The notes under the pieces are model-generated. The model had not been told where the DNA came from. It searched no databases and saw only the letters and a program-made list of their open reading frames with translations. Shown here piece by piece: positions 7,867 to 24,780 of a stretch of 26,561 bases of DNA. The stretch is from Thermoplasmata archaeon (GTDB taxonomy: Archaea > Thermoplasmatota > Thermoplasmata > Lutacidiplasmatales > UBA184): NCBI GenBank assembly GCA_028864975.1, contig JAGWLG010000042.1, positions 1-26,561 on the forward strand, given 5' to 3'. Made by a program: the position numbers and the translations under genes. Positions within the stretch are counted from its first letter, which is position 1, and every line of letters starts with the position of its first letter.

Positions 7867-7978
7867 TACTAAGGGAAGTAGATAGACATTATCTATTTTG
7901 TTGCGTGAATAGGCAGCCCCGGCGAAGCGCTTACCTTTGGGCGCCCAACGGAGGCCCGCGCGCGTGCGACATTATCTA
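7867..7978. promoter_or_regulatory. Divergent promoter region with dyads and an 11-bp direct repeat (candidate HxlR operator/TATA elements)
   Basis: AT-rich island containing TACT-N6-AGTA (7867-7880), ATAGA-N5-TCTAT (7882-7896) and GACATTATCTA at both 7885-7895 and 7968-7978. Confidence 0.45.
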
Positions 7979-8007
7979 GACAGCTCGCTCCCGACTCTCG
8001 CATTGCC

Positions 8008-8343
8008 ATGACGTGGAAGCCGACGGGGGTCCCTCTGGGCTCCCTGAAGTCCGGAACGATGCGAGAGGTGGAGGTCGACGGAGAGAGCGTCCTGCTGGTT
8101 CGACTCGTCGACGGGGTCTACGCCACGCAAGCCCGATGCACTCACGAGGCCGGCGCTCTGGCCGACGGAGGGCTCACCGGGGAGAAGGTCCAGTGCCCGG
8201 AGCACGGGGCAACCTTCGATGTGCGCGACGGCAAGGTCCTCGTCGACCCTGACGGGGTCGAGCCGCCTCAGGGCGGGGCGGGCCCCCTCGCGGTGTACGC
8301 GACCCGGGTCCACGAGGGTCAGGTCGAGGTCGACCTCCCTTAG
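8008..8343 (+). CDS. Rieske [2Fe-2S] ferredoxin
   Basis: Ligand motifs RCTHE and QCPEHGATFDVRDGKV (CxH...CxxH); 111 aa. Confidence 0.93.
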   Translation: MTWKPTGVPLGSLKSGTMREVEVDGESVLLVRLVDGVYATQARCTHEAGALADGGLTGEKVQCPEHGATFDVRDGKVLVDPDGVEPPQGGAGPLAVYATRVHEGQVEVDLP

Positions 8344-8388
8344 CTCCCGCTCTCGATGCCCAGGATCGGGACACGTTGGAGGTGGTCG

Positions 8389-10233
8389 ATGACGATCGCG
8401 GTCCTGGTCAAGGTCGTCCCTGACCTCGACAAACTGACCTTCGACCCGCAGACCCGTACCGTCCGTCGCGCGGGCGCCAAGCTGTACATGAACCCTTTTG
8501 ACCAGCGCGCGGTCCTCGCCGCCGTCGATTTTCGGGCCCCCGAAGAGAGGGTCGCCGTGGTCAGCATGGGCCCTCCGGACGCCCGACCCGCGCTTACGGA
8601 AGCCCTGGCCCTCGGCGCCGACAGGGTGTTGCTCGTCAGCGACCGCACCCTCGCTGGGTCGGACACCTGGGTCACCTCGCAGGTCCTCGCAGCAGCCCTC
8701 CGCCGCATCTCCCCCGACCTCGTCCTCGCGGGCCACTACTCCACCGATAGCGAAACGGGGCAAGTTCCCGCCCAGGTCGCGGAACAGCTTGGCCTCCCCC
8801 TCGTCGACGCGGCCCGCAGGATCGAGCGGGGCGGACCCGGCCAACTCTCGGTTCTCGGCGAGACGGCCTCCGGTTCCGCGCGCTACCACGTCGCCCGACC
8901 TTGCCTTGTCACGGTCGGGGAGAAGATCACCAAATCGCGGAAACCGACGCCTGAGGCGCTGGCGCAGGCCCAAGAGAAGCCCTTCGAGGTCCTCTCGGCG
9001 AAGGACCTCGGGCTGGAACCGAACTCCCTCGGTCTTCAGGGATCTCCCACGCAGATCCTCGGCCTGGAGAACGAGGAGCCTGCCCGCCGGCCCTTCGTCG
9101 TTACGAATGGGAACGTCGAGGAACGGGTCCAGCGAGCCGTCGCCAGGATCGTCGAGCTCCTCGGTCGCCCTCGCGATGCGGCTCCTCCTCTGAGAGAAGC
9201 CGTGAGGCCGGAGAACCAAGACGGCGAGGTCATGGTCCTGGCTTCGGGTCCAGAGGGTGGAGTGGACCCCGACGCCCTTCCGCTCATCGCCGAGGTTCGT
9301 CGTCTCCCTCAGCCCCTTTGGCCTTCGGCGATCGTGACCGGGCCTCTCTCGTCGGACGACCGCAGGCGGCTCGCGTCGGTCGGAGCTCTGCGCGTCTACG
9401 CGAAGGCTGGTGGGCCCTGCGAGCTCTCCGCCGAGCAGGCCACGGCCTTGTGCGCGCAAGTTCTTCGAGCCCGCCCGCGATGTGCAGCAGCCCTCTTCCT
9501 CTCCACGTCTTGGTCGCGCGAGATCGCGGGCCGGCTTTCGGGTCGGCTTCAGCTCGGACTGACAGGAGATGCAGTCGGAGTGCGATGGGACGCCGCGCAC
9601 GGGTTGGTCTTTCACAAGCCCTCGTTCGGGGGTGGGCTCGTCGCGCTCGTCGTCTCGCGGCGGCAACCATCGCTTGCGACGGTGCGGCCCGGGGCGCTTG
9701 CTCGGGGGGCTCTCGCGAGTCCCTCGGAGCTCGAGGTGGTCCCCGTCGAAGGGGACCTGCCTCTCTCCAGGGTCGACCGCTCGGACGTTCGCATCGAACG
9801 CGAAGAACGCTTTGGGGAGTTGGACCACGCCCGCACCGTGGTCGCGATCGGTATGGGTATCGGAGGGGCGGATAAGGTGCCGAAGGTTCTGGAGACCGTT
9901 CTCCCGCTCGGTGCGGCCCTCGGGGCCACTCGACGTGTGGTGGATGCAGGGTGGGTGCCAACCCAGCTCCAGATAGGGCTCACGGGGAGATCCCTCGCGC
10001 CGGACCTCTACCTGGGGGTGGGAGTGAGCGGACAGGTGAACCACCTGATCGGGGTCAAACGGGCGAGGGTCTCGGTCGGGATCAATCCCAAGACGACCGA
10101 GCCCCTGTTCCAGCGGGTGGACGTTGGCATCGTGGGAACGTGGCAGGAGGTCTTGGGACCCCTCGTCGAAGAACTTCGACGGTCGGCCCCGCCGGGCCTC
10201 CTCGGTCGCTCGGGTTCCTTCGCGCCCTCGTAG
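8389..10233 (+). CDS. etfB-etfA: Fused electron transfer flavoprotein beta-alpha (EtfB-EtfA/FixAB)
   Basis: ATG 8389 follows GGAGGTGG. The beta part has IAVLVKVVPD...MNPFD, VSMGPP, ALALGADRVLLVSD and STDSETGQV. The alpha FAD domain has LGATRRVVDAGWVPTQLQIGLTGRSLAPDLYLGVGVSGQVNHLIG. Confidence 0.93.
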   Translation: MTIAVLVKVVPDLDKLTFDPQTRTVRRAGAKLYMNPFDQRAVLAAVDFRAPEERVAVVSMGPPDARPALTEALALGADRVLLVSDRTLAGSDTWVTSQVLAAALRRISPDLVLAGHYSTDSETGQVPAQVAEQLGLPLVDAARRIERGGPGQLSVLGETASGSARYHVARPCLVTVGEKITKSRKPTPEALAQAQEKPFEVLSAKDLGLEPNSLGLQGSPTQILGLENEEPARRPFVVTNGNVEERVQRAVARIVELLGRPRDAAPPLREAVRPENQDGEVMVLASGPEGGVDPDALPLIAEVRRLPQPLWPSAIVTGPLSSDDRRRLASVGALRVYAKAGGPCELSAEQATALCAQVLRARPRCAAALFLSTSWSREIAGRLSGRLQLGLTGDAVGVRWDAAHGLVFHKPSFGGGLVALVVSRRQPSLATVRPGALARGALASPSELEVVPVEGDLPLSRVDRSDVRIEREERFGELDHARTVVAIGMGIGGADKVPKVLETVLPLGAALGATRRVVDAGWVPTQLQIGLTGRSLAPDLYLGVGVSGQVNHLIGVKRARVSVGINPKTTEPLFQRVDVGIVGTWQEVLGPLVEELRRSAPPGLLGRSGSFAPS

Positions 10234-10299
10234 CTTCCTTGCACCCGCCGCTAGGACGCTTGCGTCCCACGAGGCACGGCACCTTCTGACCATCCTTAT

Positions 10300-12423
10300 T
10301 TGACCTCGGGGCACGCTTGGGTCGTGGAGCCGCAGGCGCGGGCCCGCGCCGACGTGGAGACACAACCTCTCCCCCCGGGAACCTCGCTCCTTGACCTGGG
10401 CCGTTCGCTCGCTCGCGCGGGGCACGTCGTCGGTCTCTTGGAGACCCTGGGGGCGCCCGGGCCCTCGCTCCTGGTGTGGGACCCGGTCGTGACCTTGAGC
10501 GCTCATGACGGAGGGGTCAGGGTCGAAGACCCCAAGGGGTTCCTTGGGGCATGCGGGCCGTCCCACCCCCGCGACGCTCCGCGGCTCCTCCAGCAACTCT
10601 CCGCCCCCTATCGGACGGAGGAGAACGGGTCGAGCCCACCGGGACTCCCTTTCGTCGGAGGATGGATGGGATTCTGCGGCTACGAGTGGTCGGCCGCGCA
10701 GGAAGGCCCGACCCGTGCGGGCGAAGACGGGGTCCCCGATCTTTGGTTCGGGCTCTTCGACCATGCGGCCGTCCGCCCTTCCGACGGAGAGCCCCTCGTT
10801 CTTGCCGTCCCCTCCTTCCGTGGTACCCGAGTGCGAACCCTGCTGAGGGAGTTGGGCCGCCTCCCACGATCTTCCACCTTCCACCGCGGCCGACCGAGCC
10901 CCCTCCCTTCACCTCGGTCCGACCTTTCTCGGTCCCGCTTTGAGAGCATGGTCCGTGATGTTCGCCGCAGGATCCGACAAGGGGAGGTCTATCAGGTCGA
11001 CATCGCGCGTCGGGTCCGGGCTCCGGATGTTGATCCGTGGGACCTCTATATGCGGCTCCGGGAGGGGAACCCGAGCCCGTTCGTCGGCGTGCTGGACACC
11101 GGGAAGTTCACCATTGTCTCCGGGTCACCCGAGGAACTGGTACGCGTGCGTCAAGGGCCCCGCGGGGACCGATGGGTCTCGACGCGTCCCATCGCGGGGA
11201 CCCGCCCACGGGGAAGGGGGCCGCAGGACCTGCGGAACGAGCGGGCGCTCCGCCGTTCGGCCAAGGAGGTCGCGGAGCACACGATGATCGTCGACCTCGA
11301 GCGTAACGACCTGGGACGCATCTGCGAGCCGGGGAGCGTCGAGGTGGACGAATGGTTGACCGTGGAGCGCTACTCCCACGTCATGCACTTGGTCTCGAAC
11401 GTGCGGGGTCGCCTCCTCCGGGACGTGGGGACCCCTCAGCTCTTCCGAGCGATGATGCCCGGAGGGTCCATCAGCGGGACGCCGAAGATCCGAGCCACCG
11501 AGGTGATCTCCGAGGTGGAGGATGTCCCCCGCGGGGCGTACACCGGTTCGCTCGGATATCTCTCGTTGGACGGGCAGGTGAGCATGAACCTGCTCATCCG
11601 AAGCGCGTTCTTCCCTCACGGAGGGCGAGAGGCCCACCTCTACGCGGGGGCCGGGATCGTCCAGGACTCGCGCTCGGACCGCGAGTGGAACGAGATCGAG
11701 CGCAAGTTCTCCGCGCTCTTTCGAGCCCTCGGGAACGGAGGGCCCCCCACCAGCTCGGGGTTCGCCTGGGCCCCCCCACACCTCTGGGAGGCGTGGAAGG
11801 CCCCCCGACCCGCACGACGCTTCCCCGACCGAAGGGTGCTGCTCGTCGACAACTACGACTCGTTCACCTTCAATCTGGCCCAGTACTTCTCGGCGCTCGG
11901 AGCGCGCGTGCGCGTGGTACGGAACGATGAGCTCCCCCTGGAAGAGCTCCGGGCCTGGGCCCCGAGCCATGTGGTGCTCGCGCCCGGCCCGGGTCGCCCC
12001 CGGGACGCGGGAGTGACCCTGGAAGCGGTCCGCGCGTTCGAGGGGACACCCCTCCTGGGGGTCTGCCTAGGGCACGAATCGATCGTGGAAGCGTACGGCG
12101 GGACCTTGGGACCTGCCCGTCGCCCGGTCCACGGGAAGGCCTCTCCGATCCGACATCGGTCGACCCGGGGCCGACCCGACCTCCTTGGCGACCTTCCGAG
12201 CCGCTTCTCGGGCGCCCGCTACCACTCGCTCGTCGCCTGCAAGGTACCCCCTCAGCTCGAAGTGACCGCGAGGACGCTCCAAGGGGAGGTCATGGCCGTC
12301 CAGCACCGTGACGCCCCGAGCTTCGGGGTACAGTTCCATCCCGAGTCGATCCGGACCCCCGGCGGGATGAGCATCCTCTCCCGCTTCCTGGCCATCGAGC
12401 CGTACCGAGAGAAGCGCGCGTAG
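10300..12423 (+). CDS. Chorismate-utilising MST enzyme fused to class I glutamine amidotransferase; probable aminodeoxychorismate synthase (PabB-PabA order)
   Basis: Synthase motifs are GEVYQV, NPSPF, SPEELV, TRPIAGTRPRG, EHTMIVDLERNDLGR and SGTPKIRA. GATase motifs are LVDNYDSFTFNLAQY, PGPGRP, GVCLGHE and QFHPES. The true start may be GTG 10324 (TTATTT at 10296-10301). Confidence 0.88.
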   Translation: MTSGHAWVVEPQARARADVETQPLPPGTSLLDLGRSLARAGHVVGLLETLGAPGPSLLVWDPVVTLSAHDGGVRVEDPKGFLGACGPSHPRDAPRLLQQLSAPYRTEENGSSPPGLPFVGGWMGFCGYEWSAAQEGPTRAGEDGVPDLWFGLFDHAAVRPSDGEPLVLAVPSFRGTRVRTLLRELGRLPRSSTFHRGRPSPLPSPRSDLSRSRFESMVRDVRRRIRQGEVYQVDIARRVRAPDVDPWDLYMRLREGNPSPFVGVLDTGKFTIVSGSPEELVRVRQGPRGDRWVSTRPIAGTRPRGRGPQDLRNERALRRSAKEVAEHTMIVDLERNDLGRICEPGSVEVDEWLTVERYSHVMHLVSNVRGRLLRDVGTPQLFRAMMPGGSISGTPKIRATEVISEVEDVPRGAYTGSLGYLSLDGQVSMNLLIRSAFFPHGGREAHLYAGAGIVQDSRSDREWNEIERKFSALFRALGNGGPPTSSGFAWAPPHLWEAWKAPRPARRFPDRRVLLVDNYDSFTFNLAQYFSALGARVRVVRNDELPLEELRAWAPSHVVLAPGPGRPRDAGVTLEAVRAFEGTPLLGVCLGHESIVEAYGGTLGPARRPVHGKASPIRHRSTRGRPDLLGDLPSRFSGARYHSLVACKVPPQLEVTARTLQGEVMAVQHRDAPSFGVQFHPESIRTPGGMSILSRFLAIEPYREKRA

Positions 12424-12431
12424 GGGGAGGC

Positions 12432-13280
12432 GTGTCCCGGGTCTGGTGGAACGGGCACGAGATGCCCCAGCAGAAGCTGCCCACAACCCCTGGCTCCCGG
12501 CTCGGCGACGGGGTCCTTGAGACGCTGCGAACCTACGAGGGGGTCCCGTTCCTCCTCGATGCCCACCTTGAGCGGTTGTTCTCCGGGGCACGGTCGATCC
12601 GTTTGGTCGGACTCCCTTCCCGTCGCTCGCTGGATGCGAGGATCCGCGACATCCTTGGCGCCTCACGACGACGGGACCGCATCGACCACGTCGTTCGGAT
12701 CTTGCTCACGGAGGGAGGGGCCCGGACGGATGTCACGGTCGTGCTCGACCCGCTCCCGACCGGGGCGGCCTACCAGGGAACTCGCGGTCTTCGGGTCGGC
12801 ACCTCCGCCTACTCCCACCCGGGACCCTTCTTCCTACCTGCAGGAGCGAAGGGACCCGCGAAGTGGGTCGGCCGCGGTCCGCTGGTCCATGCGCTGCGCG
12901 AGGCACAGAGGCGAGGCTGGGACGAAGCGATCCTGGCGAACGCGCGGGGAGCCTTCGTGGAAGGGACCCGTTCGAACCTCTTCGCGGTGGTGGGAGGTCG
13001 GCTCGTCGCGCCTGGCCCCCGCGCGATGGCGCTGCAGGGGGTCACTCGCAACCTCGTCCTCGTCGCGGCGCGTCGGAAGGGCTGGCGCGTCGAGGACCGC
13101 CCGGTGACCGTCGGCGAGCTTCGGCGGGCCTCCGAGGCGTTCCTCACCTCCTCCCTCCTGGGCGTCGTCCCCATCGTCCGTTGGGGCCGCTGGCACTGGG
13201 GAAGCGAGGGCCCGGTGGTTCGGACCCTGCGTGCAGCCCACTCCAACGAGGTTCGGCGGGCGAACGAACGCTCCGACTAG
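12432..13280 (+). CDS. pabC: PLP-dependent aminotransferase class IV; probable 4-amino-4-deoxychorismate lyase
   Basis: GDGVLETLRTYEGVPFLLDAHLERL, AKW (PLP Lys), EAQRRGWDEAILANARGAFVEGTRSNLF, LQGVTR and EAFLTSSLLGVVPI. GGAGG precedes the GTG. It lies 8 nt after the synthase gene. Confidence 0.8.
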   Translation: MSRVWWNGHEMPQQKLPTTPGSRLGDGVLETLRTYEGVPFLLDAHLERLFSGARSIRLVGLPSRRSLDARIRDILGASRRRDRIDHVVRILLTEGGARTDVTVVLDPLPTGAAYQGTRGLRVGTSAYSHPGPFFLPAGAKGPAKWVGRGPLVHALREAQRRGWDEAILANARGAFVEGTRSNLFAVVGGRLVAPGPRAMALQGVTRNLVLVAARRKGWRVEDRPVTVGELRRASEAFLTSSLLGVVPIVRWGRWHWGSEGPVVRTLRAAHSNEVRRANERSD

Positions 13281-13341
13281 ACTTCGCCAAGAGGGCCTTC
13301 GGAGCGACCGTCCTCCTTATGGACGGGGGCCCTCCGGGGCG

Positions 13342-14166
13342 ATGTTGGCGCCATCCGGATCCTCCCCTCCATCCGCGGAAGGCCTCTCCTCCTTCCGTCG
13401 CGCGGGTCGCGTCACGGAGGTACTCTTCCTGTACGAGGTCGCCCTCCACCGACATGCTCGGCTGCGGCCGATCGCACGAGAGCTAGGGATCACGGTCCAG
13501 GCCGCCTCCCAGCTTAATCGTGCGCTCGAACAGAGGGGCTGGACCCAGCTCGTCGAAGGGAACTACGTGCCCACCGTCCGGGGGATCGCCGCCCTGCACG
13601 AGGCGCTGATCTCCCTGCGGACGGACCTCGACGATCGTCTCGGCAGGCTGCGGGTCGTCACTCGGTGTCGTGCGGTGGCCGCCCGTCCCCTGCGGAAGGG
13701 GCAGCGGGTCGTGCTCCGTCTGGAGGATGGACTCCTCGTCGCGGTCCCGGGGGACCGCGGCCCCTCTCGGGGTCGGACGATGCTGGCGGCGCGGAGGGGG
13801 GACCTGGTCGAAGTGGAAGAGCTCGAGGGCATCCTTCCGCTGCGTCCCCATCCCGTCCGCTGCCTCGTCCTCCCGACCCGCCCTCTGCCCACGAGGCGGG
13901 CTGGGCAGGAGGTCGCCCAAGAGCTGCGAAGAAGCCGCTACGGTCTAGTGGCCGCGGAAGGCCTCGAGGCCTACCACCTGCTCCAGAGGGCCACTGCGCT
14001 TCCCGTCGTCCGTTTCGGGGTGGCCTCGGTCTGCCGCGAGGCCGCTCAGATGGGCGTGCCCGTGCTCGTCGTCGTGGCCGAGGAACGCCTCCCGGCCTTC
14101 CTCCAGAAGCTCTCCGACCCGACCCCCGTCGCCGAGGTCGAGGTGGAGACCCTGGGGGAGGCGTAG
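13342..14166 (+). CDS. Archaeal wHTH transcriptional regulator, COG1497/MJ0558-like
   Basis: TEVLFLYEVALHRHARLRPIARELGITVQAASQLNRALEQRGW...YVPTVRG, then LRKGQRVVLRLEDGLL, RGDLVEV and VAAEGLEA...VVRFGVASVCREAAQMGVPVLVV. ATG 13342 has TTAT about 22-25 nt upstream. Confidence 0.75.
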   Translation: MLAPSGSSPPSAEGLSSFRRAGRVTEVLFLYEVALHRHARLRPIARELGITVQAASQLNRALEQRGWTQLVEGNYVPTVRGIAALHEALISLRTDLDDRLGRLRVVTRCRAVAARPLRKGQRVVLRLEDGLLVAVPGDRGPSRGRTMLAARRGDLVEVEELEGILPLRPHPVRCLVLPTRPLPTRRAGQEVAQELRRSRYGLVAAEGLEAYHLLQRATALPVVRFGVASVCREAAQMGVPVLVVVAEERLPAFLQKLSDPTPVAEVEVETLGEA

Positions 14167-15091: not shown

Positions 15092-17266
15092 TCAAGGCTT
15101 GGACCAGCGATCGAAGCGGGAGCGCCAGAAGCTCCCGTGCGCCCGACGGTTCGATAGGAGCGGATAACCGAACCCCGCACCAAGCCCAGCGAGCGAGCCC
15201 AGGCCCACCGAGACGACGGGTCCGGACCCACCGAGCGACCCTGTTGCGGTGCTCGAGCTCGCGTCGGAGTGCACCTGTATCTCGAGCAGCTGGGAGGCCA
15301 CATAGTGACCTGCGGTGTCGGTGACCGTGACCTGAGCATAGTACGTTCCGGGGCTCGAATAGGTGTGGCTCGCGGTCTCGGCAACGAGACTGGTCCTGTC
15401 ACCAAAGGCCCAGACAAAGAGGTAGGGCGCCCGTCCGCCGCTAGCGCTGGCCGCGAACGAGACCGAGAGCGGAGGGACCCCGGTTTGGGCGCTCGCCGTG
15501 GCGCGCAGGACCACTGAGGAGCCCATGTCGCCGTTCACATCGGAGCCAAGTATCGTAACCTGAATCGATGGGGCGTTGTAGCTCCCACCCGAGCCATCAG
15601 AGACCGACACCGAGAGCACGAAGTTTCCCGCTTCGCTGTAGGTGTGAGACACCACGAGACCCGTGGCCAGAGTCCCATCTCCGAAGTTCCAGTCGACCAC
15701 ATACGGCGACACACCCCCCGATGGTGTGGCGCCGATGGACACCGTGAGAGGTGCGGGTCCGGTGATCGAGCTGAGCGAGACCGACAACGTCAGCGGCAAC
15801 GACTGGTTCTCGCCCTGAACGTAGACCGTCAATGACGACGCTTGGGCGGTAGTCCCCGCGGAGTCGGTGACCGTGAGGGAGACGATGTACGCACCGTGAT
15901 TGACATAGGTGTGCGTCGGCGAGGCAGAGCTGCCCGACGTACCGTCCCCGAAGGACCAACCGTAGGTGTACGGAGCCACGCCCCCAGAGGCAGACGACGT
16001 GAAGTTCACGACCAGCGGAGCTGTTCCCCAGCTAGGGGTTGCGGTGTCGGACACCAGGAGAGTCGGGGGCGGGGGTGGGGTCGAGCCGGAGCACACTGAG
16101 GCTGCCTTGCTGACATCGAAGAGGTCGAGAGAGCCCGTCCCGTTGGACGTGGAACTCCATGCCGTGACCCCCAGCAGGTCGAGCGCGGGATCGAAGGCGA
16201 TCTGCATCGGGGAGGCGACGGGGTAGGGCAGGGGGCTCATGGCGGTGAGGTTCGAAGCGCAGTAGACCTCCCCCTGCTGCGAGAATCCCGTGGTGGCCAG
16301 AAGGTCGTGGACAGGGTCGAGCGCGACGCCGAAGACCTGGCCCACCGTGGGGAGGGTCGTGAGGACCTTGAGCGGGTTCTCTTCGATCACGGTGATCACC
16401 GACCCCTGCGAGCCGGAGACGTAGACCAGGTGGTGGATCGGATCCAGAGCCTCGGTCGAGTAGGTGAGGTCGCTCACCGCGAGGTTGGCGACAAGGGTGT
16501 CCGTGGAGGTGTTGACCACATGCACGGTGTTGGAGCCGGTGTCGGTGACGAAGGCCAGCTGGGTGGAGGGGTCGAGGGTGATCCAGTAGGGCCAGCTGCC
16601 CGCACCGGTGGAGACGTTGGCGACGACATGCCCGGTAGGGCGGTCGACAACGGACAGCTCCGAGTTGAAGAAGTCGGTGACCCAGAGCTGGTTGGTCTGG
16701 GGGTCGAACGCGACAGAGTAGGGGGCCGCCTGGCGTCCAGAGAGACCGACCTGGACGTTCTGGAGGAGGTTGCCGTTGGAGGTATCGAACTTGCCGAGGT
16801 TGGAGTCGAGGTAAGGGACCCACAGGTCGTTGGTGGAGTTGTCGAACCAGCTGCCACGAGCCTCGCCGTTGCCCCCAACGGACCAGGTGAGGAGGGCGCT
16901 CTTCGAGAGGAGGTCCACAGAGGTGACATGGTCGGTGGGGGCGTTGGAGGCGTCAATGACGAAGGCGCGATGGGTGGCCGGATCGATGGTCAACCCCCAC
17001 GGGTAGGGCCCCGTCGGAACACTGCCCGCCGCAGATACCAGCGCCGAGCCAGCGGGCACCCCCCCGGCCGCGGAACCCACCGTCCCGACCGGGAGGTCCG
17101 CCCCAGCTGCAACCGCTCCTCTAGGAAGCCCACCCAAGGAGAGCCCCGCCACGAGGGCCAGCAACCCAACCACCAGGCCAAGAAGGAACAAGTGCACCGA
17201 GGATGGTCTCGGGGAGGTCACGGTAAGACGGGGTGGGGCTCGCATGTGTGGCGCGGTGCGCGTCAT
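15092..17266 (-). CDS. Surface protein: signal peptide, YVTN/YncE-type beta-propeller, 3 PKD domains, C-terminal membrane anchor
   Basis: Hydrophobic leader LFLLGLVVGLLALVAGLSLGG. Repeats of the type PYSVAFDPQTNQLWVTD and PYWITLDPSTQLAFVTD. Three PKD repeats (WSFGDG/WNFGDG/WAFGDR...SHTY..G.Y.V...V.D). Gly-rich hydrophobic C-terminus followed by Arg. ATG 17266 lies about 27 nt after TATATG. Confidence 0.88.
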   Translation of the reverse strand: MTRTAPHMRAPPRLTVTSPRPSSVHLFLLGLVVGLLALVAGLSLGGLPRGAVAAGADLPVGTVGSAAGGVPAGSALVSAAGSVPTGPYPWGLTIDPATHRAFVIDASNAPTDHVTSVDLLSKSALLTWSVGGNGEARGSWFDNSTNDLWVPYLDSNLGKFDTSNGNLLQNVQVGLSGRQAAPYSVAFDPQTNQLWVTDFFNSELSVVDRPTGHVVANVSTGAGSWPYWITLDPSTQLAFVTDTGSNTVHVVNTSTDTLVANLAVSDLTYSTEALDPIHHLVYVSGSQGSVITVIEENPLKVLTTLPTVGQVFGVALDPVHDLLATTGFSQQGEVYCASNLTAMSPLPYPVASPMQIAFDPALDLLGVTAWSSTSNGTGSLDLFDVSKAASVCSGSTPPPPPTLLVSDTATPSWGTAPLVVNFTSSASGGVAPYTYGWSFGDGTSGSSASPTHTYVNHGAYIVSLTVTDSAGTTAQASSLTVYVQGENQSLPLTLSVSLSSITGPAPLTVSIGATPSGGVSPYVVDWNFGDGTLATGLVVSHTYSEAGNFVLSVSVSDGSGGSYNAPSIQVTILGSDVNGDMGSSVVLRATASAQTGVPPLSVSFAASASGGRAPYLFVWAFGDRTSLVAETASHTYSSPGTYYAQVTVTDTAGHYVASQLLEIQVHSDASSSTATGSLGGSGPVVSVGLGSLAGLGAGFGYPLLSNRRAHGSFWRSRFDRWSKP

Positions 17267-17462
17267 CGCCCTTTGGTGGTGTGCTCCAGCCTCATATACG
17301 TCCCCCGGAGATTCGACGTGAATCCGACGGTCCGCACACCTCCACAAAGATCCAGGTGTTGAACTCAACAGGCGCGAGCATGCGCGCCCGACGCCCCAAG
17401 GTCGGGACGGCCCGAGAGGTTTATGACGGGGGGATGCCCCTATCGAGCCTACGGCAGACCGG

Positions 17463-20400
17463 ATGTTTCTTTCAACGTGGCCGGGCCAAGTGGCGGTGGC
17501 GGGCGCGCTCTGCCTGCTGTTTCTGGGGTCCCTGTTGGTGGATCCCTCGGCCAGCGGGGGCTTCGCTCCCCTCCCTCGTGCCGACGCGTCGGTGCCTGCG
17601 GCCCCTTCGCTCCCCGCCCTCCCCGCCCTGGCACCTGCCTACGTCCAGTATCGGTACGTCTCGCTGCCGGCGGTTTCCGGGGGTGGCTATGGAGTTGCCT
17701 TTGACGCCCTCCACCGGACCTACGACGTCGTGGGGACCACGGGGCTTACGGCAGTGGCCGAAGGGTCCTGGTCGGTGGTCGGGTCATTGAGCCTCAGTTT
17801 GGGCTCGTACACCCGTGTTGCCGTGGACCCAGGACGCGAGCGCGCCTTCGTGAGCGGTGGCACGGTCACGAATGTGGTCGAGGTCAACACTTCCACCCTA
17901 TCGGTCATGTCGACGTTGAGGACCTCGGCCGACGTCGAAGGTCTAGCGGTCGACCCCACCTTGGCGTTGCTTGTCTATTGCAACGGCACCGACGTCTCAT
18001 TCTACGACTATGTCACCGGCGCCCCGCCGGTCGACATCCCCACGGTGGGTTGTTCGCGGGTGGCCATTGACACGGATCATCGCCTGGTCGCCGGTACCGA
18101 GCCGGGAACCAGCGTTGTTGCCATCCTCAACGAGACCACGCATCGGTGGTTCTCCAATGCCACGGTGTACTCCGCTCCGCTCCCTGTGGTCTACGATCCA
18201 GCGTCCCACGAGTTCATTTCGGGGAGCAACGGGGCGAGCGAGATCTCGATCTTTCTCGCCACCCACCCGGGAGTCGTCACCAACCTCAGCGTCCCGGGGA
18301 TCTCCCTCGTCCAAGATGAGTCGATGGTGGGGGTCGGGGCCGACGAGCTCCTGGTCTGGGGGAACTCCCAGATGGACGTCTTCGACGTGCCATCGCAGAC
18401 GTTCCTCCAGCAAGTGACCCCGTCCTCGGCCCCAGGTTTTCCCTACGGGATCGCGACCGACCCGGTCACACACGTGGCCGTGGGCATAGATCCCGTGAAC
18501 CAGATCGACCTCCCGTTCGCCCCGATCACACCCTTGAAGACCGTGCTCTTCTCCGCTGGAACCGCCTTTTCCGGTGGAGGGTACGGCGTTGCCTTCGACG
18601 CGTTCCATGACACGTTCGACGTGGTGGGCTCTGCTGGAGTCCAAGTCGTCCAGGAAGGGACCTGGTCTGGGGCGGGCTCGATCCCTATTTCGCTTGGGAA
18701 CTACGATCGCATCGCGATCGACAGCGGGCGGCAGCTCGGATTCTTCTCGGGCGGGACCGCTGGGAACGTCCGGGTGTTCAACACGACCACGCTATCGGTG
18801 GTGCTCACGCTAAAGACCGGGTCCAACGCAGCGCAGGGACTTGCCGTGGATCCGATCCGGCATCTGCTCGTGTACGCGAACGGCTCAGGTATTTCCTTCT
18901 TCAACTACGCGACCCTCGCCGCGCCGATCACCATCCCCGCGAGCGCGGGCGGACGAGTGGCCATCGATCCGGATCATCAGATCGTGGCGGTGTCAGAAGG
19001 TAGCATGGTGGCCCTGCTCAACGAGACCACCCGCAAGTGGATCACCAACGTCACGATCACTCAGGTCCTGCCCGTCGGATATGACAACCTGACGGGGGAG
19101 GCCGTTCTCGGCAGCAACGGAGGAAATGCCCTCAGTCACTTCCAGATGGTCCGGAGCAACCCCGTCACGAACGTCACCATAGGATCGTTGACGACGACGC
19201 AGGACCTGTGCATGGTCGGAGGAGGCTCGGACGAGGCGTTGCTGTGGGGTACGTCTTCGTTGGTGGTCTATGCGGTCAATAACGATACCATCCTCCAGAC
19301 CCTGAGCGGGTCCGGCAACTTCCCCTACGGTATCGCCGAGGACCCTGCCACCTTCACCGCTCTCGGCGTGGACCCCGTGAACGGGTATGATTCCCCCTAC
19401 TACGGAACCGTACAATCTCCGACACCACCGACGGGCGTCACAGCGTCTCCGGGTAATGGGACGTTCACCGTCAGATGGAGCGCCAGCAGCTCGACGGGAC
19501 TGACGAACTACTCCGTCTCCTACGGGGCATCACCCTCCTCCCTCACTTCGTCCTATTCTGTCGGGAGTGCAAGCACATTGTCCGCGACCCTCCCTTGGGT
19601 GAATGGAGCAAAGGTCTACGCGGACGTGGTGGCCTGGGTCGGGACACAGCCGAGCGCACCCTCCTCGCCTGTGGTCAGTACGACACCCGGCAGCATCCCG
19701 TACCCTCCCGAAGCGGTGAGCGTCACGCCCTCGAACCGCTCGTTGCTCGTCTCCTGGGGCGCTCCTGCCTCCAACGGCGGATGGAGTCTCCTGAACTTCA
19801 GCGTCGGAGTCGGTGCGACCCCCACGTCTCTGAGATGGTCTTGGAGCGCCGGGGGGCCCGCGAGTTCCCTGTGGGTCTACGGGTTCACGGACGGAGTCCC
19901 AGAGTTCGTCGCCGTGCGTGCCTGGAACGTCATCGGTGGAAGCAACCCTTCCGGGGTGACCTCCGCGACACCCGCCGGTGCTCCCTTCCCGGTTCAAGGG
20001 CTCGGCGTTACCTCGGGCAACGGCACGCTCACCGCGAGCTGGAACGCGCCCGTATCCGACGATGGGTCGCCGATCGACAACTATAGCCTGGGATTGGGCG
20101 CGTCTCCCACGTCCCTTCTATGGTCTTACTCCACAGGGACGGGCTCTCAGCTGAGCTACACCTTCGCTCCCCTCCTGGACGGGGCCATCCAGTACGTGTC
20201 GGTCCGTGCGTGGAACGCTATCGGCGGTTCCAACGCATCCCTCCCTGTCGCCGGAACCCCGGTAGGTGTTCCGTACCCCGTTCGGGCGCTAGTGCTGCTC
20301 CCGTCGAACCACACCCTGACGGTCCATTGGCAAGCACCCTTGAGCGACGAGGGAGCACCGGTCGTGAACTACAGCGTAGGGTGGGGCTCGTCGCCTCAAT

Positions 20401-22622
20401 CCCTCATATGGTCCGGCTCGACCGGCTCTGGCTCGAACTTCTGGTTCAATGTCACAGGTCTCCCCGACGGCGCCCGAGTTTACGTGGCGGTTCGTGCCTG
20501 GAACGCGGTGGGCGGCAGCACACTCTCCAGTCCAGTCTCAGGAACGCCCGCGGGGGTGCCCTACCCGGTGCGCTCCGTCTACGTCGCGGGCGCCAACAAC
20601 TCTCTCCTGATCAACTGGACCGCGCCCTACTCGGACGATGGCTCCCCCGTGGTGAACTTCAGCATTGGGATGGGGACTTCGGGGGGCGGCCTGATCTGGA
20701 ATAATGCGACGGGTAGCGGATCGGTCGTTTCCTTCCGAATCGGAGGGCTCACGAACGGCGTTGTTCTCTTTGTCTCAGTTCGCGCCTGGAACGCCCTAGG
20801 GGGAAGCGCACCGTCGACACCGACCGGGGGGACCCCGGGCGGTGCGCCTTTCCCGGTGGTCGGTCTTTCCGTCACCTCATACAACACCACCTTGTCCGTC
20901 GGCTGGAGCGCCCCGGTCTCCGACGGTGGAGTTCCGATCGACCATTTCTGGGTCACCTCCGCGACCTCACCTGGTGGACCGAATACGACTACCGAGGTTT
21001 CCGGCTCCTGCCCTTGTTCGATGGCCCTCCAGGGTCTGGTGGACGGCCAGGCCTACTACGTCAGCGTCCGCGCGCACAATCCTAGGGGTAACAGCACGGC
21101 TACGACCCCACGCGTGGGCATCCCAGCGGGGGTCCCCTACCCGCCCGAAGCGATCTCTGTCGATCTCGTCGGACCTACCGATGCCGTCGCGTCTTGGTCA
21201 GCGCCCTTCTCCATCGACGGGAACGCCCTCACGGGCTACGTGCTGGAGTACCAGGTTGGGCAAGGTCCGGTCCAGAACGTTAGCCTAGGGCCAGCCATCC
21301 TCACCTATCGACTGAGCGGGCTCCCCTCGGGTACATCCCTTGCTTTGCGGGTCTTGGCCGAGAACGCAGTGGGAGCAGGAAATGCGACGGGCTGGGTGAC
21401 CATCCAGACCCCACAGCCGTCGGTCGGGGGGATCCAGCTTCTCGGGACCTCGTGGGGATGGCTGCTTGCCCTTGTGGGCGCATTCGTCCTCGCCATCGTT
21501 TTGATCATTCTCTACCGTCGTCGGCGCAAGGACTCCTCCTCTCGCTCGCCGCCCACGGGGTCCGGCCGCGCCTCGAGCCCAGATGCCGTTGCACCCACCC
21601 CTCCAAAGCTCTGGGCGGGTGCCCCCGGTGGTTCGAGCTCGGACGAAGTAGCCCCATCTTATGGCACGTACCCCTTGGCGTCGATGCCGGAATGGTCCGA
21701 AGAGAGCCCTCCCGATGAAGAACGGGGGCATGGACCAACGACCAGCGCATTCTCTCCTCTCTCCCCGTATGTCATGACCGTCCGCCCGGAAGGGATCCGC
21801 GTCGAACAGATCCTTCCTGGAGGGCAGCTCGCGCCGGTTCGCTCCGGGGAAGCCAGCGGAGCTTCGCCGGCCCCTGTCGCCTCGGAAGAGGAATACGACG
21901 AGGAGGGGGAGGTGGAGGTAGCTGAGACCGGGGTCACGCCCGTCGCGCACCCTGCACCGACGGCTCATGTTCCCCAGCTCACGGGGGCCGACGCCTATTC
22001 GGTTCTGGGGTCTCTCTCCTCTCAAGCGCGCAGCTTGGACGGGATCAAGCAAGCGACCCGGCTCGAGGATGATGGGCTGCTGCTGCTTCTCGGTGCTTTC
22101 GTGCGCGCGAAATTGGTCACCCGGTCCGCCGCAACGACCTCCGGAGCCCCCGGTGGCACCTTCGCCCTTACGCCTGCTGGTCGCTCCGTTCTGCGGCGGG
22201 GACTACCTTCACCCTCCCAGCCATCCCCTCCGAGCGCCGCTACTCCCGCACCTAACGCGGGCACTCCCTCACCCACCTATGTCCCGTCTGGAAGTCTCCC
22301 CCCGCCCCTCGGCTTGACGCAACTCCCCGCCAGCCACGCCGTCGTCTTGCACCTATCGGCCTTCCACGGGCACAGAGATGAGGCCGTCGTCCCGTCCGAG
22401 GTCTCGCAAGCGGGGATCGCTCAAGCACTTGCGACGACTCCCAACTCGGTCGCGGTGACCCTGAAGCGGCTGGAGGACGGCGGACTGGTCCAACACGACC
22501 TTCGCCACGTCAAGGGGGCACGACGACGGCTGAAGACCTACTTCTTGACCGAGAAAGGGCTGAGCTTCCGACGCGAGCTGCTCAAGAGCCGGGAAAAGGA
22601 GAATCGGCAGGGACCACAGTAG
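17463..22622 (+). CDS. 1719-aa single-pass membrane protein: signal peptide, 2 beta-propeller-like domains, 7 FN3 repeats, TM, Pro/acidic linker, 2 winged-helix domains
   Basis: Two GGGYGVAFD-initiated domains of about 290 aa. Seven FN3 repeats of about 96 aa (P.P.....W.AP.SD.G....NYS......V.VRAWN..G.S). TM WGWLLALVGAFVLAIVLIILY followed by RRRRK (21453-21530). wHTH motifs at 21981-22199 and 22320-22583. Confidence 0.9.
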   Translation: MFLSTWPGQVAVAGALCLLFLGSLLVDPSASGGFAPLPRADASVPAAPSLPALPALAPAYVQYRYVSLPAVSGGGYGVAFDALHRTYDVVGTTGLTAVAEGSWSVVGSLSLSLGSYTRVAVDPGRERAFVSGGTVTNVVEVNTSTLSVMSTLRTSADVEGLAVDPTLALLVYCNGTDVSFYDYVTGAPPVDIPTVGCSRVAIDTDHRLVAGTEPGTSVVAILNETTHRWFSNATVYSAPLPVVYDPASHEFISGSNGASEISIFLATHPGVVTNLSVPGISLVQDESMVGVGADELLVWGNSQMDVFDVPSQTFLQQVTPSSAPGFPYGIATDPVTHVAVGIDPVNQIDLPFAPITPLKTVLFSAGTAFSGGGYGVAFDAFHDTFDVVGSAGVQVVQEGTWSGAGSIPISLGNYDRIAIDSGRQLGFFSGGTAGNVRVFNTTTLSVVLTLKTGSNAAQGLAVDPIRHLLVYANGSGISFFNYATLAAPITIPASAGGRVAIDPDHQIVAVSEGSMVALLNETTRKWITNVTITQVLPVGYDNLTGEAVLGSNGGNALSHFQMVRSNPVTNVTIGSLTTTQDLCMVGGGSDEALLWGTSSLVVYAVNNDTILQTLSGSGNFPYGIAEDPATFTALGVDPVNGYDSPYYGTVQSPTPPTGVTASPGNGTFTVRWSASSSTGLTNYSVSYGASPSSLTSSYSVGSASTLSATLPWVNGAKVYADVVAWVGTQPSAPSSPVVSTTPGSIPYPPEAVSVTPSNRSLLVSWGAPASNGGWSLLNFSVGVGATPTSLRWSWSAGGPASSLWVYGFTDGVPEFVAVRAWNVIGGSNPSGVTSATPAGAPFPVQGLGVTSGNGTLTASWNAPVSDDGSPIDNYSLGLGASPTSLLWSYSTGTGSQLSYTFAPLLDGAIQYVSVRAWNAIGGSNASLPVAGTPVGVPYPVRALVLLPSNHTLTVHWQAPLSDEGAPVVNYSVGWGSSPQSLIWSGSTGSGSNFWFNVTGLPDGARVYVAVRAWNAVGGSTLSSPVSGTPAGVPYPVRSVYVAGANNSLLINWTAPYSDDGSPVVNFSIGMGTSGGGLIWNNATGSGSVVSFRIGGLTNGVVLFVSVRAWNALGGSAPSTPTGGTPGGAPFPVVGLSVTSYNTTLSVGWSAPVSDGGVPIDHFWVTSATSPGGPNTTTEVSGSCPCSMALQGLVDGQAYYVSVRAHNPRGNSTATTPRVGIPAGVPYPPEAISVDLVGPTDAVASWSAPFSIDGNALTGYVLEYQVGQGPVQNVSLGPAILTYRLSGLPSGTSLALRVLAENAVGAGNATGWVTIQTPQPSVGGIQLLGTSWGWLLALVGAFVLAIVLIILYRRRRKDSSSRSPPTGSGRASSPDAVAPTPPKLWAGAPGGSSSDEVAPSYGTYPLASMPEWSEESPPDEERGHGPTTSAFSPLSPYVMTVRPEGIRVEQILPGGQLAPVRSGEASGASPAPVASEEEYDEEGEVEVAETGVTPVAHPAPTAHVPQLTGADAYSVLGSLSSQARSLDGIKQATRLEDDGLLLLLGAFVRAKLVTRSAATTSGAPGGTFALTPAGRSVLRRGLPSPSQPSPPSAATPAPNAGTPSPTYVPSGSLPPPLGLTQLPASHAVVLHLSAFHGHRDEAVVPSEVSQAGIAQALATTPNSVAVTLKRLEDGGLVQHDLRHVKGARRRLKTYFLTEKGLSFRRELLKSREKENRQGPQ
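19410..21415 (+). repeat. Seven tandem fibronectin type III coding repeats (about 288 nt period, diverged at DNA level)
   Basis: Recurring VRAWN (GTCCGTGCGTGGAAC-like) and PYP/PFP motifs at about 96-codon spacing. Confidence 0.85.
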
Positions 22623-22692: not shown

Positions 22693-24618
22693 CTACGGGG
22701 GGTGAGGGGGGAGGTACGATGGTGGAGCTGGGTACGGTGGCGGCGGCTCAGGGTAGGGTTGCGGGCCCTGAGAGGAGTAAGGAAACTGGCTCGAGGGCCC
22801 CCAGCCGGTGGCACTCGGCGGAGCGCCGAGCGCGCCACCTCGCATCCGCCCCTTCCTCCTACGTACCAGGAGGATGACGGTGACCGCCAGTACGGCTAGC
22901 AGGATCAGGGCCATCACAGTGAGTCCTTCGAAAGTCACGAGCCAGTCGGCCAACGTGGACGTGGGAGGTGCCGAGAGCACCACGGTAACGACCCCGCTGG
23001 AGTTCCCGTAGCCTACGCTGTTCCGCGCGCTGACATTCAGGTTGTAGGTGTCCCCCGTCGTGAGGTTTCCGAGGGTGGCATGGTCTGCAGTCGCACCCAG
23101 GACTTCGTAGGTCCAGGTCGGGCTGGTCTCGTCGCGCCACCCCACACGGAACGCCGTGATGACGCTACCGTCGTTCGATCGAGGTAGACTCCACTGCAGC
23201 CCGATGACAGTTGCCCCTTGAGCGGAAGCGGAGACGTTCTGAGGTGGGAATGGGATCCCGACTGGAATGGTCTCGACCGCTGGAGAGGAGGGACCACTCG
23301 AGACAGAGCCGTTCCAAGCCGTCACGGCGGCGTACACTGGTGAGCCGTCGGGCCAGGAGAGGCTCACGGTGGAGGGTGAGGAGCTCCCTGTCGAGATAGT
23401 ACGCGTGAGGGTCGCCGCGGAGCTTCCGTACTCGATGGAATAGTTTGTGATCCTGTAGGCCACGGATGCACTCCAAGTGACACTTGCGCTGTTGTTCCCT
23501 CCCCTCAGGGACACGAACGCGGGAGGGGAGGGGACCGTGGAGACGGAGGTGAGGAATGGCGTGTCTTGCGAAGCCGCAGGATCAACCCCTAGGGCCACCT
23601 CGGTCGACGGGTCAACTGCGATTCCGTAGGGGAAGCTTCCGCCCCCGGGAATCGCGATCGATTGGAGCACCGACATATTATTCGCAGCGACGACCGAGAG
23701 TCGGTTGTTCCCCCAAACGAGAACCTCGCTCGTCCCTCCACCAACAGGCGCCATGTCTTGGAGGTTCGTCATAAGCGAGATCGTGCTGTTCGTCGAGCGT
23801 CCCAGGGTCGCCGGCGAAAGAGTGCTCCACTGGTTGTTGCCATTGCTCCCCGCCACGAACTGGTCCGTAGCGGGGACGAAGGTGAGTGGGAGGATCGAGG
23901 GGACCACCGAGACGTTCCCGAACCAGCGGTGCGTGGTTTCGTTGATCAGCCACACGACACCAGGAGTGGTGGGTTGGCTTGCGGCCACGACCTGGTGGAC
24001 CGGGTCCAACGCCACGCGTGTGGGGGTCCCTACTGCGACCGCAGCGAGGTGCGTCGAGGTGACGTAATTGTAGAAGGAGACCCCCGTGCCATCCGTGTAG
24101 ACGAGGAGGGCGCGGCCCGGGTCGAGCGCCATCCCCTCGGCCCCTCCCGAGGTAGGAATCGAGCCTGTTACGGTGAGGGTCGTGGTGTTCACGATCGAGA
24201 TACCCGTCGCGGTACCGCCCGAGACGAACGCCAACTGGCGTCCTCCGTCCACGACCACTCTGCAGTAGTTCCCCAAGGAGAGGGAGACGTTTCCCGCGTA
24301 GGTCCAAGTTCCTTCTCGGACCACCTGGAGGCCCCTTGTGGTGCTCGCGACATCGAAAGTCTGGTGGAGTGGGTCGAAGGCGACTCCGTAGCCCCCTCCC
24401 GAGAACGGAGTGCCCGCATGGTACGAGACCATGTTGAGGGGGGCGGGGGGAATCCCGAGTGCCGGGCTTCCCGATGCGGCAGCCGCACGGGGCAAGACCC
24501 CTTCGAGCCCGGAAGTGGGGCGTAGTACCGAGGGGAGAACGAGAATGGCGACCACGATCAGGGTGGACGTCAGCCAGAACCTTTGGACACCCCTACTCCA
24601 TCGAACTCTCGCTACCAT
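22693..24618 (-). CDS. Shorter paralogue: signal peptide, 1 propeller, 2 FN3, TM, Pro/Tyr-rich tail
   Basis: GGGYGVAFDPLHQTFDV...SLSLGNYCRVVVDGGRQLAFVSGGTA closely parallels both propellers of 17463..22622. TM LTVMALILLAVLAVTVILLV is followed by RRRKGR. The tail is PQPYPEPPPPYPAPPSYLPPHPP. An alternative GTG start lies at 24687. Confidence 0.88.
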   Translation of the reverse strand: MVARVRWSRGVQRFWLTSTLIVVAILVLPSVLRPTSGLEGVLPRAAAASGSPALGIPPAPLNMVSYHAGTPFSGGGYGVAFDPLHQTFDVASTTRGLQVVREGTWTYAGNVSLSLGNYCRVVVDGGRQLAFVSGGTATGISIVNTTTLTVTGSIPTSGGAEGMALDPGRALLVYTDGTGVSFYNYVTSTHLAAVAVGTPTRVALDPVHQVVAASQPTTPGVVWLINETTHRWFGNVSVVPSILPLTFVPATDQFVAGSNGNNQWSTLSPATLGRSTNSTISLMTNLQDMAPVGGGTSEVLVWGNNRLSVVAANNMSVLQSIAIPGGGSFPYGIAVDPSTEVALGVDPAASQDTPFLTSVSTVPSPPAFVSLRGGNNSASVTWSASVAYRITNYSIEYGSSAATLTRTISTGSSSPSTVSLSWPDGSPVYAAVTAWNGSVSSGPSSPAVETIPVGIPFPPQNVSASAQGATVIGLQWSLPRSNDGSVITAFRVGWRDETSPTWTYEVLGATADHATLGNLTTGDTYNLNVSARNSVGYGNSSGVVTVVLSAPPTSTLADWLVTFEGLTVMALILLAVLAVTVILLVRRRKGRMRGGALGAPPSATGWGPSSQFPYSSQGPQPYPEPPPPYPAPPSYLPPHPP

Positions 24619-24780
24619 GCTTCGATGTCCTACGACGTTCCGGCTTCTTGAACGATTGCCCGCGCGGATCAGCGTTTGGAGCACCACGGCGGGGTATGTT
24701 CGCGGAGGCTCTGACCCACTTTTTCGGGCAAGAATTGGCCCGCCCTCTTTCTACGGGTGTCCCCGCCTCTGTCCGGCCTT

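Follow-up and report, generated by a model that had tools for sequence, protein, structure and literature searches.

A single-pass surface protein with a double winged-helix tail from a Thermoplasmata archaeon, a candidate membrane-tethered transcription regulator

The stretch of DNA analyzed here (the window, 26,561 nucleotides, contig JAGWLG010000042.1) comes from an uncultured Thermoplasmata archaeon and carries at positions 17463 to 22622 a gene for a protein in which a large ectodomain is joined by one transmembrane (TM) helix to a cytoplasmic tail with two winged helix-turn-helix domains, here called wHTH-1 and wHTH-2. The reading that we favor, at a rough probability of 55%, is that the product is a type-I membrane glycoprotein acting as a membrane-tethered one-component transcription regulator. 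The reasons for this reading are that selection is strongest on wHTH-2, that this domain carries the hallmarks of DNA binding, that the same domain is the output of MalT-like regulators, and that the family it defines is embedded in surface-protein gene clusters. A prediction made earlier from the letters of the DNA had suggested a one-component surface receptor, which would still be the best interpretation. The gene and the parts of its product, in amino acids (aa), are as follows:

17463..22622, + strand: whole gene, 1719-aa single-pass surface protein with double winged-helix tail; open frame, colinear orthologues elsewhere
17463..17552, + strand: N-terminal hydrophobic signal or signal-anchor (aa 1-30); Kyte-Doolittle peak at aa 7-26
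17670..18518, + strand: propeller-like domain 1 (aa ~70-352)
18564..19400, + strand: propeller-like domain 2 (aa ~368-646), the copy common to the orthologues and the neighbouring short paralogue
19437..21395, + strand: seven FN3 repeats (aa 659-1311, 96-aa period); Pfam fn3 1.3e-33 and repeat mapping
21453..21530, + strand: TM helix (aa 1331-1351) with RRRRK on its inner side; Kyte-Doolittle maximum 2.9, positive-inside residues read from the translation
21636..21710, + strand: cytoplasmic motif SSD[ED]VAPxYGxYPLA..PEW (aa 1392-1416); 63-67% identity to orthologues, flanks 20-31%
21750..21818, + strand: motif PYVxTVRPEGIRVEQ (aa 1430-1452), predicted beta-hairpin; 74% identity to orthologues
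21975..22208, + strand: wHTH-1 (aa 1505-1582); AlphaFold2, profile, Foldseek and conservation
22320..22580, + strand: wHTH-2 (aa 1620-1706), PadR/MarR-like, with basic wing HVKGARRRLKTY; model, profile, Foldseek and conservation

Two winged-helix domains on the cytoplasmic tail

The tail extends for 368 aa beyond the TM helix, and alignment with three orthologous tails resolves it into conserved blocks that alternate with variable linkers. Identity to the orthologues is 82-83% in wHTH-2, 64% in wHTH-1 and about 50% over the ectodomain, whereas it falls to 29% in the TM helix, about 22% in the juxtamembrane stretch, 23-28% in linker 1 and 19-24% in linker 2. By this sequence comparison wHTH-2 is the most constrained segment of the whole protein.

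The wHTH-2 domain is modelled by AlphaFold2 from an 84-sequence alignment with confidence scores (pLDDT) of 94-98, and the model shows three helices followed by a long beta-hairpin wing and one more helix at the C-terminus (model elements H184-193, H210-216, H221-233, E237-244, E250-256 and H258-276). A long hairpin wing followed by a C-terminal helix is the arrangement of a PadR-type winged helix. The N- and C-terminal dimer-interface helices of the MarR type are absent, there being one helix on each side of the HTH-wing core in both tail domains. Foldseek matches for wHTH-2 include the MarR-family protein MepR (with its DNA complexes), the PadR protein Rv3488 with other PadR chains, and the pNOB8 centromere-binding protein AspA, and a six-sequence profile matches Rv3488 at 5e-5 together with many MarR and PadR chains. 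The isoelectric point (pI) is about 10 in this protein and the median net charge in the family is +6; moreover, the Arg-Arg pair of the wing and the polar start of helix 3 are nearly invariant among 84 members. wHTH-2 is thus the putative DNA reader of the protein. A homodimer prediction, run for a pair of aa 1615-1719 segments on an alignment of 84 rows, returned a score of 0.00, which gives no verdict and is not used in either direction.

If wHTH-2 is the domain that reads DNA, what does wHTH-1 do? In a first AlphaFold2 run, in which four sequences covered it, the domain was poorly modelled; with nine diverse sequences it takes the form of a canonical winged helix (H-b-H-H-b-b-H) with a core pLDDT of 87-93. 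Its profile matches OhrR at 3e-5, its Foldseek matches are MarR, PadR and ArsR regulators, and its pI is 10.8. Helix 3 is acidic and hydrophobic in nine of nine aligned members, and for this reason wHTH-1 is more likely, as judged from its residues, to be a protein-contact module (for self-association or as an adaptor) than a reader of bases. Two cytoplasmic winged-helix domains had been predicted at the outset, and both are now upheld by AlphaFold2 models, by profiles and by the Foldseek comparison that the prediction had itself proposed.

The Pro/acidic linker of about 150 aa that had been described after the membrane is real (aa 1352-1504, 153 aa), but it is not featureless, since it holds the two conserved motifs listed above, of which PYVxTVRPEGIRVEQ is modelled by AlphaFold2 as two strands at pLDDT 67-79. 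The sequence P-E-G-I-x-V within this motif is common to all proteins with the wHTH-1 module, and the SSD[ED]VAPxYGxYPLA..PEW motif recurs in a paralogue on contig C4 that has wHTH-1 only. Pro-rich disordered linkers flank both winged-helix domains; linker 1 is strongly acidic, and both winged helices have a pI above 10.

A phylum-wide family, a narrow module and a variable ectodomain

The wHTH-2 family was defined by profiles A1/A3, and the window protein is among the six sequences used to build the profile, so that its own match of 7e-46 is that of a profile member; in the library search the orthologue P0005 scored 7.6e-30. The C-terminal ~100 aa of the family follow the pattern LHL...TQxG...QN...L+RL..xG.V...+HV.G..RR.K.Y.LT..G, to which the window protein conforms. 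At E<=1e-3 the family comprises 2564 clusters at 50% identity, and at E<=1e-10 it comprises 1459. Of 301 genomes sampled from the phylum, 177 (72 of 138 genera) have matches at the stricter cutoff, at 1-13 per genome. The domain lies nearly always at the C-terminus. Among the best 149 representatives, 78 consist of an ectodomain, an internal TM segment, a linker (median 77 aa) and wHTH-2, a further 34 have an N-terminal hydrophobic segment only, and 37 have no TM segment. The 78 ectodomain-TM members contain 607 N-x-S/T sequons before the TM segment and 24 after it, and the ectodomains of the family include a form with two PKD domains (~380-470 aa), which is the commonest, as well as Kelch or NHL propellers, arrays of PKD domains and FN3 domains. 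Of the 37 members without a TM segment, three are at least 600 aa long and the other 34 are small stand-alone proteins. The long soluble members carry AAA_16 and TPR domains and end in wHTH-2, as checked in P0010 and in two paralogues from the source genome.

The source genome holds three membrane-tethered members, two of the AAA-TPR type and one small one. Both of the other tethered members lie in surface-protein clusters, each beside a STAND/TPR gene, and on contig C115 the divergent neighbour of the tethered member is an AAA_16 and MalT-TPR protein that itself ends in wHTH-2. On the same contig (positions 38000-52000, L023), two Kelch and multi-PKD surface proteins of 1185 and 1088 aa flank the PKD-TM-wHTH gene. 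At C101:1-9700 (L024), an AAA_16/TPR protein in which no winged helix was detected, a 744-aa protein without a Pfam match, a two-PKD protein and a PKD-TM-wHTH protein are encoded in one orientation, and this run is convergent with a gene for an XPD-like helicase.

Among the papers searched there was no description of this wHTH-2 family in Thermoplasmatota, which is large, phylum-wide and so far undescribed, and of which the window protein is one member. The prediction had known of no described example of the architecture. This statement needs correction, given more than 1400 clusters across the phylum and members that automatic annotation already labels PadR, HxlR or HTH regulators (the small stand-alone ones are named PadR). 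What is particular to the window protein is an ectodomain of the largest class, with two propellers and seven FN3 repeats, and the added wHTH-1 module. A tandem arrangement of another kind is found on the tail of the surface protein P0106 (1496 aa), in which wHTH-2 (aa ~1223-1316) is not terminal; a DUF835 domain follows it and a weak DprA_WH-like match precedes it.

In contrast to this wide distribution, the wHTH-1 module (the PEW/YGxY and PEGIxVE motifs together with wHTH-1) was found, among 201 genomes of the class, only in the source genome's own family, where it occurs in the source genus and in three of three genomes of one sister genus. It usually ends there in another conserved motif and a Lys/Arg-rich tail rather than in wHTH-2. 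Single-pass surface proteins of this kind are encoded at C4:1629-4772 (L005/L012) and in the sister genus (L010, L011, L013 and L014), and in place of wHTH-2 the wHTH-1-only proteins end in NPFEG..EDVNPN..LQPMEMRV..DR and a C-terminus rich in Lys, Arg and Glu. A word-based search for wider relatives of wHTH-1 returned orthologues only, and a feature search of the ESM Atlas gave leads to small HTH proteins only, all below 0.85. The two winged helices are therefore separate modules with different distributions and are not equivalent, and the window protein and its orthologues, as judged by these alignments, combine two independent cytoplasmic modules.

A Kyte-Doolittle scan of the whole 1719 aa finds only two strongly hydrophobic segments, at aa ~7-26 and aa 1331-1351. 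The second recovers the single predicted TM helix with its RRRRK. The first is compatible with the signal peptide that had been proposed, although it could also be a signal-anchor and the basic n-region is absent from the window copy (the orthologues start MRGP...). The two propellers had been called homologous, and the halves at aa ~70-352 and ~368-646 are indeed 50% identical (E 5e-92); their matches to beta-propeller families are weak, and a sequence search against solved structures found no solved relatives. Likewise, the count of seven FN3 repeats is confirmed: Pfam fn3 reports five stretches in aa 659-1311, and a first phmmer round gave five significant and two weak repeats, all seven being recovered after one profile iteration. 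The sequon counts of the original prediction (31 before the TM helix, none after it) are also correct, and the logic of its topology is supported. The ectodomain is enriched, with 31 sequons against 11.6 +/- 3.1 in shuffles (0 of 2000 shuffles reach 31), whereas the zero in the tail alone is uninformative, 0.5 being expected by composition because the tail is poor in Asn (0.8% versus 4.6%). Hydrophobicity, positive-inside residues and sequons together point to a type-I (N-out, C-in) membrane glycoprotein.

Assemblies from ENA, Logan and NCBI contain orthologues with the same tail, of 1334-1524 aa. Nine proteins of 1514-1524 aa group in a single 90% cluster, on contigs that reach 218 kb, and two of the orthologues lie in named Thermoplasmata metagenome-assembled genomes (MAGs; JAJYEA010000073 and JAKAAX010000003). 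The orthologues are colinear with the window protein and have one propeller instead of two; P0157, for example, lacks propeller copy 1. From this comparison the ectodomain appears to evolve through the duplication of domains, with the tail retained.

The locus and the remaining genes of the window

The earliest usable start of the gene is the ATG at 17463, since an in-frame stop ending at 17426 precludes any start upstream of it; other gene callers place the start at Val10 or Val12. When the upstream region was aligned with those of two orthologues (~50% protein identity), a single conserved block, CGAGAG[G/A]TTTAT[G/C]A, was observed, which corresponds to a box resembling the archaeal B recognition element (BRE) and TATA element and which may act as the promoter. 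Scans of the region for sigma-70 promoters and terminators are uninformative in an archaeal host. This box and the genes that surround the large gene are as follows:

17413..17426, + strand: BRE/TATA-like box CGAGAGGTTTATGA, ~37-50 nt upstream of the ATG; conserved in the orthologue upstream regions
15092..17368, - strand: divergent neighbour, surface protein with an NHL-like propeller, three PKD domains and a C-terminal TM segment; Pfam PKD_4 1.9e-41
22693..24687, - strand: convergent neighbour, short paralogue with one propeller, two FN3 repeats, a TM segment and a Pro-rich tail without a winged helix
14278..15021, + strand: class I methyltransferase gene, syntenic with the cluster; Pfam Methyltransf_11/25/23, flanks the PKD gene in L020

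The divergent gene probably starts near 17266 and the short paralogue probably at 24618. This three-gene neighbourhood is kept in the loci L020, L021 and L022. The order in L020 and L022 is a divergent propeller/PKD gene, in the same position as in the window, then the large gene and the convergent short paralogue, with the methyltransferase seen in L020 only. The short paralogue, whose position is likewise kept in both loci, is 44-48% identical to the propellers and FN3 repeats of the large protein.

The rest of the window contains genes of other kinds. At 1644-5162 (+ strand) a 1172-aa protein is encoded with signatures of TrwB/TraG-type coupling proteins and HerA/DUF87 ATPases, which may belong to an integrated conjugative or DNA-transfer element; the small open reading frames (ORFs) around it have no Pfam matches. 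An apparent single-polypeptide fusion of an electron-transfer flavoprotein beta-like part and an alpha FAD-binding part (625 aa) lies at 8356-10233 (+ strand), and the 970-aa opposite-strand ORF at 7972-10884, which has no family match, is probably spurious. The region 10300-13280 (+ strand) encodes a 707-aa fusion of a chorismate-binding enzyme with a class-I glutamine amidotransferase (PabB/PabA- or TrpE/TrpG-like) and, after it, a PabC-like class IV aminotransferase, an arrangement that suggests a p-aminobenzoate branch. An ORF with a C-terminal DUF7839 at 13231-14166 (+ strand) has an uncertain gene model because it overlaps other long ORFs in a GC-rich stretch.

A tethered regulator, its alternatives and its known counterparts

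A fundamental question is how an event at the cell surface could reach the DNA through such a protein. In the mechanism that we propose, the glycosylated ectodomain, with its two propellers on a stalk of seven FN3 repeats, would bind an external polymer or a partner on the same or a neighbouring cell surface, and occupancy or clustering outside would alter the oligomeric state or the availability of the cytoplasmic tail. Coupling would proceed by clustering rather than by a sequence-specific switch of the TM helix, which fits the lack of conservation in that helix. The PadR/MarR-like wHTH-2, carried on a largely disordered Pro/acidic tail of ~270 residues, would bind DNA while still tethered and control transcription there. 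The most likely targets would be in the protein's own surface-protein cluster, namely the divergent PKD/propeller gene and the convergent short paralogue, while wHTH-1 and the PEW/YGxY and PEGIxVE motifs upstream of it would form a separate module for protein contacts. The wHTH-2 family as a whole is probably a direct link between the cell surface and the control of genes.

Several points count against this account. The wHTH-2 domain falls below the Pfam cutoffs for PadR, HTH_Crp_2, MarR_2 and Fe_dep_repress and likewise below the NCBIfam thresholds; for PadR (PF03551) it reaches 19.2 bits with the whole protein and 24.5 bits with the tail alone against a gathering threshold of 27 bits, which one family member, P0044, exceeds at 29.9 bits. 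The wHTH-1 domain does not carry the polar or basic residues that a recognition helix should have, and winged helices can also be protein-binding modules. The proposed topology is deduced from simple hydropathy and sequon counts only. No operator came to light: the upstream alignment yielded the BRE/TATA-like box alone, the upstream inverted repeats GGCGCG-N6-CGCGCC and CCCGAC-N8-GTCGGG are at chance level genome-wide, as are repeats near the neighbour genes, without any preferred spacer, and no enriched palindrome was found near the gene. Finally, DNA binding, targets, ligand and mode of coupling are our interpretation of an observed architecture and of observed folds, conservation, family membership and synteny.

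An alternative hypothesis is that the winged helices are protein-binding adaptors that link a surface adhesin or S-layer-associated protein to cytoplasmic partners such as MalT-like STAND, cytoskeletal or division proteins. The acidic and hydrophobic helix 3 shared by all nine aligned wHTH-1 domains is what such an adaptor would show, the wHTH-1 module has conserved short linear motifs and usually ends in the NPFEG..EDVNPN..LQPMEMRV segment instead of a DNA-binding domain, and a tethered and a STAND-fused wHTH-2 gene adjoin on contig C115. However, this does not account for wHTH-2, which has the PadR/MarR hallmarks of DNA binding (the basic wing, the near-invariant Arg-Arg pair, the polar start of helix 3 and the high pI) and occupies the position of the DNA-binding output in MalT-like regulators. 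We therefore regard an adaptor role for the whole tail as unlikely.

The protein could also be a latent transcription factor that is freed by proteolysis in the manner of Notch, ATF6 or RsgI, such that ligand binding or shedding leads to cleavage in or near the membrane or the linker and a soluble wHTH fragment acts on DNA. The linkers are long, poorly conserved and rich in Pro, Ser and acidic residues (153 aa before wHTH-1 and 37 aa before wHTH-2) and would be open to proteases, and the existence of small stand-alone wHTH-2 proteins indicates that the domain can work untethered. On the other hand, no conserved cleavage motif is seen in the tail alignment, the TM helix differs widely between orthologues and has no helix-breaking residues in the orthologues, and no protease gene is conserved in the cluster; furthermore, tethered action requires no additional component in a cell without a nucleus (PMC10269533). 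Release by cleavage is accordingly judged a rather improbable explanation.

A DNA-membrane tether had been the second suggestion of the original prediction, and it is considered here as one that plays no regulatory part. The tail would in that case hold the chromosome or a mobile element at the envelope and serve segregation, uptake or the organisation of the nucleoid, as centromere-binding winged-helix proteins do. The compact wHTH-2 model superposes well on AspA, the PadR-like centromere-binding protein of pNOB8 (4rs8, TM-score by target 0.82), TubR is among the fold matches of wHTH-1, and the TrwB/TraG-like ATPase gene lies in the same window. Nevertheless, the occurrence of 1-13 copies per genome, the diversity of sensor-like ectodomains and the location in surface-protein clusters fit signalling better, no partition ATPase was found beside the gene, and the TrwB-like gene, 12 kb distant, is missing from the syntenic loci, so that a purely structural tether seems quite improbable.

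The weakest alternative is that a surface-protein gene and a regulator gene became joined through misassembly or through a one-off stop-codon loss; the window is an entire 26.5-kb MAG contig and the protein's own cluster is seen on that one contig only, but full-length colinear orthologues from independent assemblies share the same TM-tail junction, conserved blocks span it, and the ectodomain-TM-wHTH plan is common to hundreds of family members, and this artefact is rejected as extremely improbable.

The tethered-regulator reading can be extended to a broader proposal that we put forward tentatively and consider doubtful as a whole. Thermoplasmatota might possess a phylum-wide, kinase-free receptor-transcription factor system in which glycosylated adhesion-type ectodomains (propeller, FN3, PKD, Kelch) report surface contact or polymer binding to DNA via a tethered PadR-like winged helix, perhaps together with MalT-like STAND proteins that share the output domain, and in the window protein the second, protein-binding winged-helix module would serve as an adaptor input. 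Little is understood of transmembrane signal transduction in archaea, and classical two-component systems are few in many Thermoplasmata. If the proposal is true, it would represent a new mode of archaeal transmembrane signalling with a logic analogous to that of eukaryotic single-pass receptors, and would provide abundant uncultured archaea with a simple, major path from the surface to the expression of genes; the family, in which adhesion-type ectodomains are joined through one membrane helix to a DNA-binding-type domain, occurs in over half of the genomes sampled from the phylum. The window protein offers a good test case, with its conserved tail, a three-gene neighbourhood that suggests targets, and soluble paralogues.

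How does the protein compare with regulators already described? In bacteria as in archaea, regulators that stay bound to the membrane and act on DNA from there form an established class (PMC10269533). Demey, Gumerov, Xing, Zhulin and DiRita (2023) apply the term transmembrane transcription regulator (TTR) to any protein that has both a TM region and a DNA-binding domain, and count 1,384 of them in 404 archaeal species, very few being validated and most uncharacterised; single-pass proteins account for 56% of TTRs (PMC10269533). The single-pass window protein, with a predicted TM region as well as a predicted DNA-binding domain, falls within this definition, subject to the sub-cutoff Pfam scores of wHTH-2. 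The original prediction knew of no described example, and this remains so for the family itself, but not for the TTR class, which had been defined and counted with archaea included. The census relied on recognised DNA-binding domain models. Proteins of the window type were therefore probably not counted in it, and regulators of this sort are probably underestimated wherever a census depends on Pfam thresholds. That paper does not mention Thermoplasmata, nor does it describe large glycosylated propeller, FN3 or PKD ectodomains. Its archaeal examples include ArnR and ArnR1 of Sulfolobus, membrane-anchored HTH regulators that control surface-structure genes (PMC10269533). The window protein resembles these in being a candidate HTH regulator anchored in an archaeal membrane. 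ArnR carries its HTH at the N-terminus and its TM helices at the C-terminus, and it is not known to have a large ectodomain.

There is a parallel in plan with ToxR, TcpP and CadC, in which a single TM helix connects an external sensor to a cytoplasmic winged-helix DNA-binding domain and the protein acts from the membrane. Some regulators of this type have a co-encoded partner membrane protein (PMC10269533), which recalls the short paralogue conserved alongside the window gene. The polarity is reversed, however: the window protein is predicted to be N-out/C-in with its DNA-binding domain at the C-terminus, not N-in/C-out, and its C-terminal winged helices are PadR/MarR-like with no match to the OmpR-type Trans_reg_C. 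It differs further in its ectodomain of 1300 residues with many sequons and in its second winged helix. The soluble PadR/MarR regulators (Rv3488, MepR, OhrR, SlyA) share with both tail domains their fold and profile similarity, and with the protein the long basic wing and the post-wing helix, but they are small dimers that possess helices dedicated to dimerisation and, in many cases, a pocket for a ligand, whereas here a single domain ends a membrane protein. The output domain of MalT is a LuxR-type HTH. In the MalT/LAL class of STAND proteins, the likeness lies with the paralogues of this genome and of others, which combine AAA_16, a MalT-like TPR and a C-terminal wHTH-2; the window protein has neither NTPase nor TPR, and what it shares with them is the output domain.

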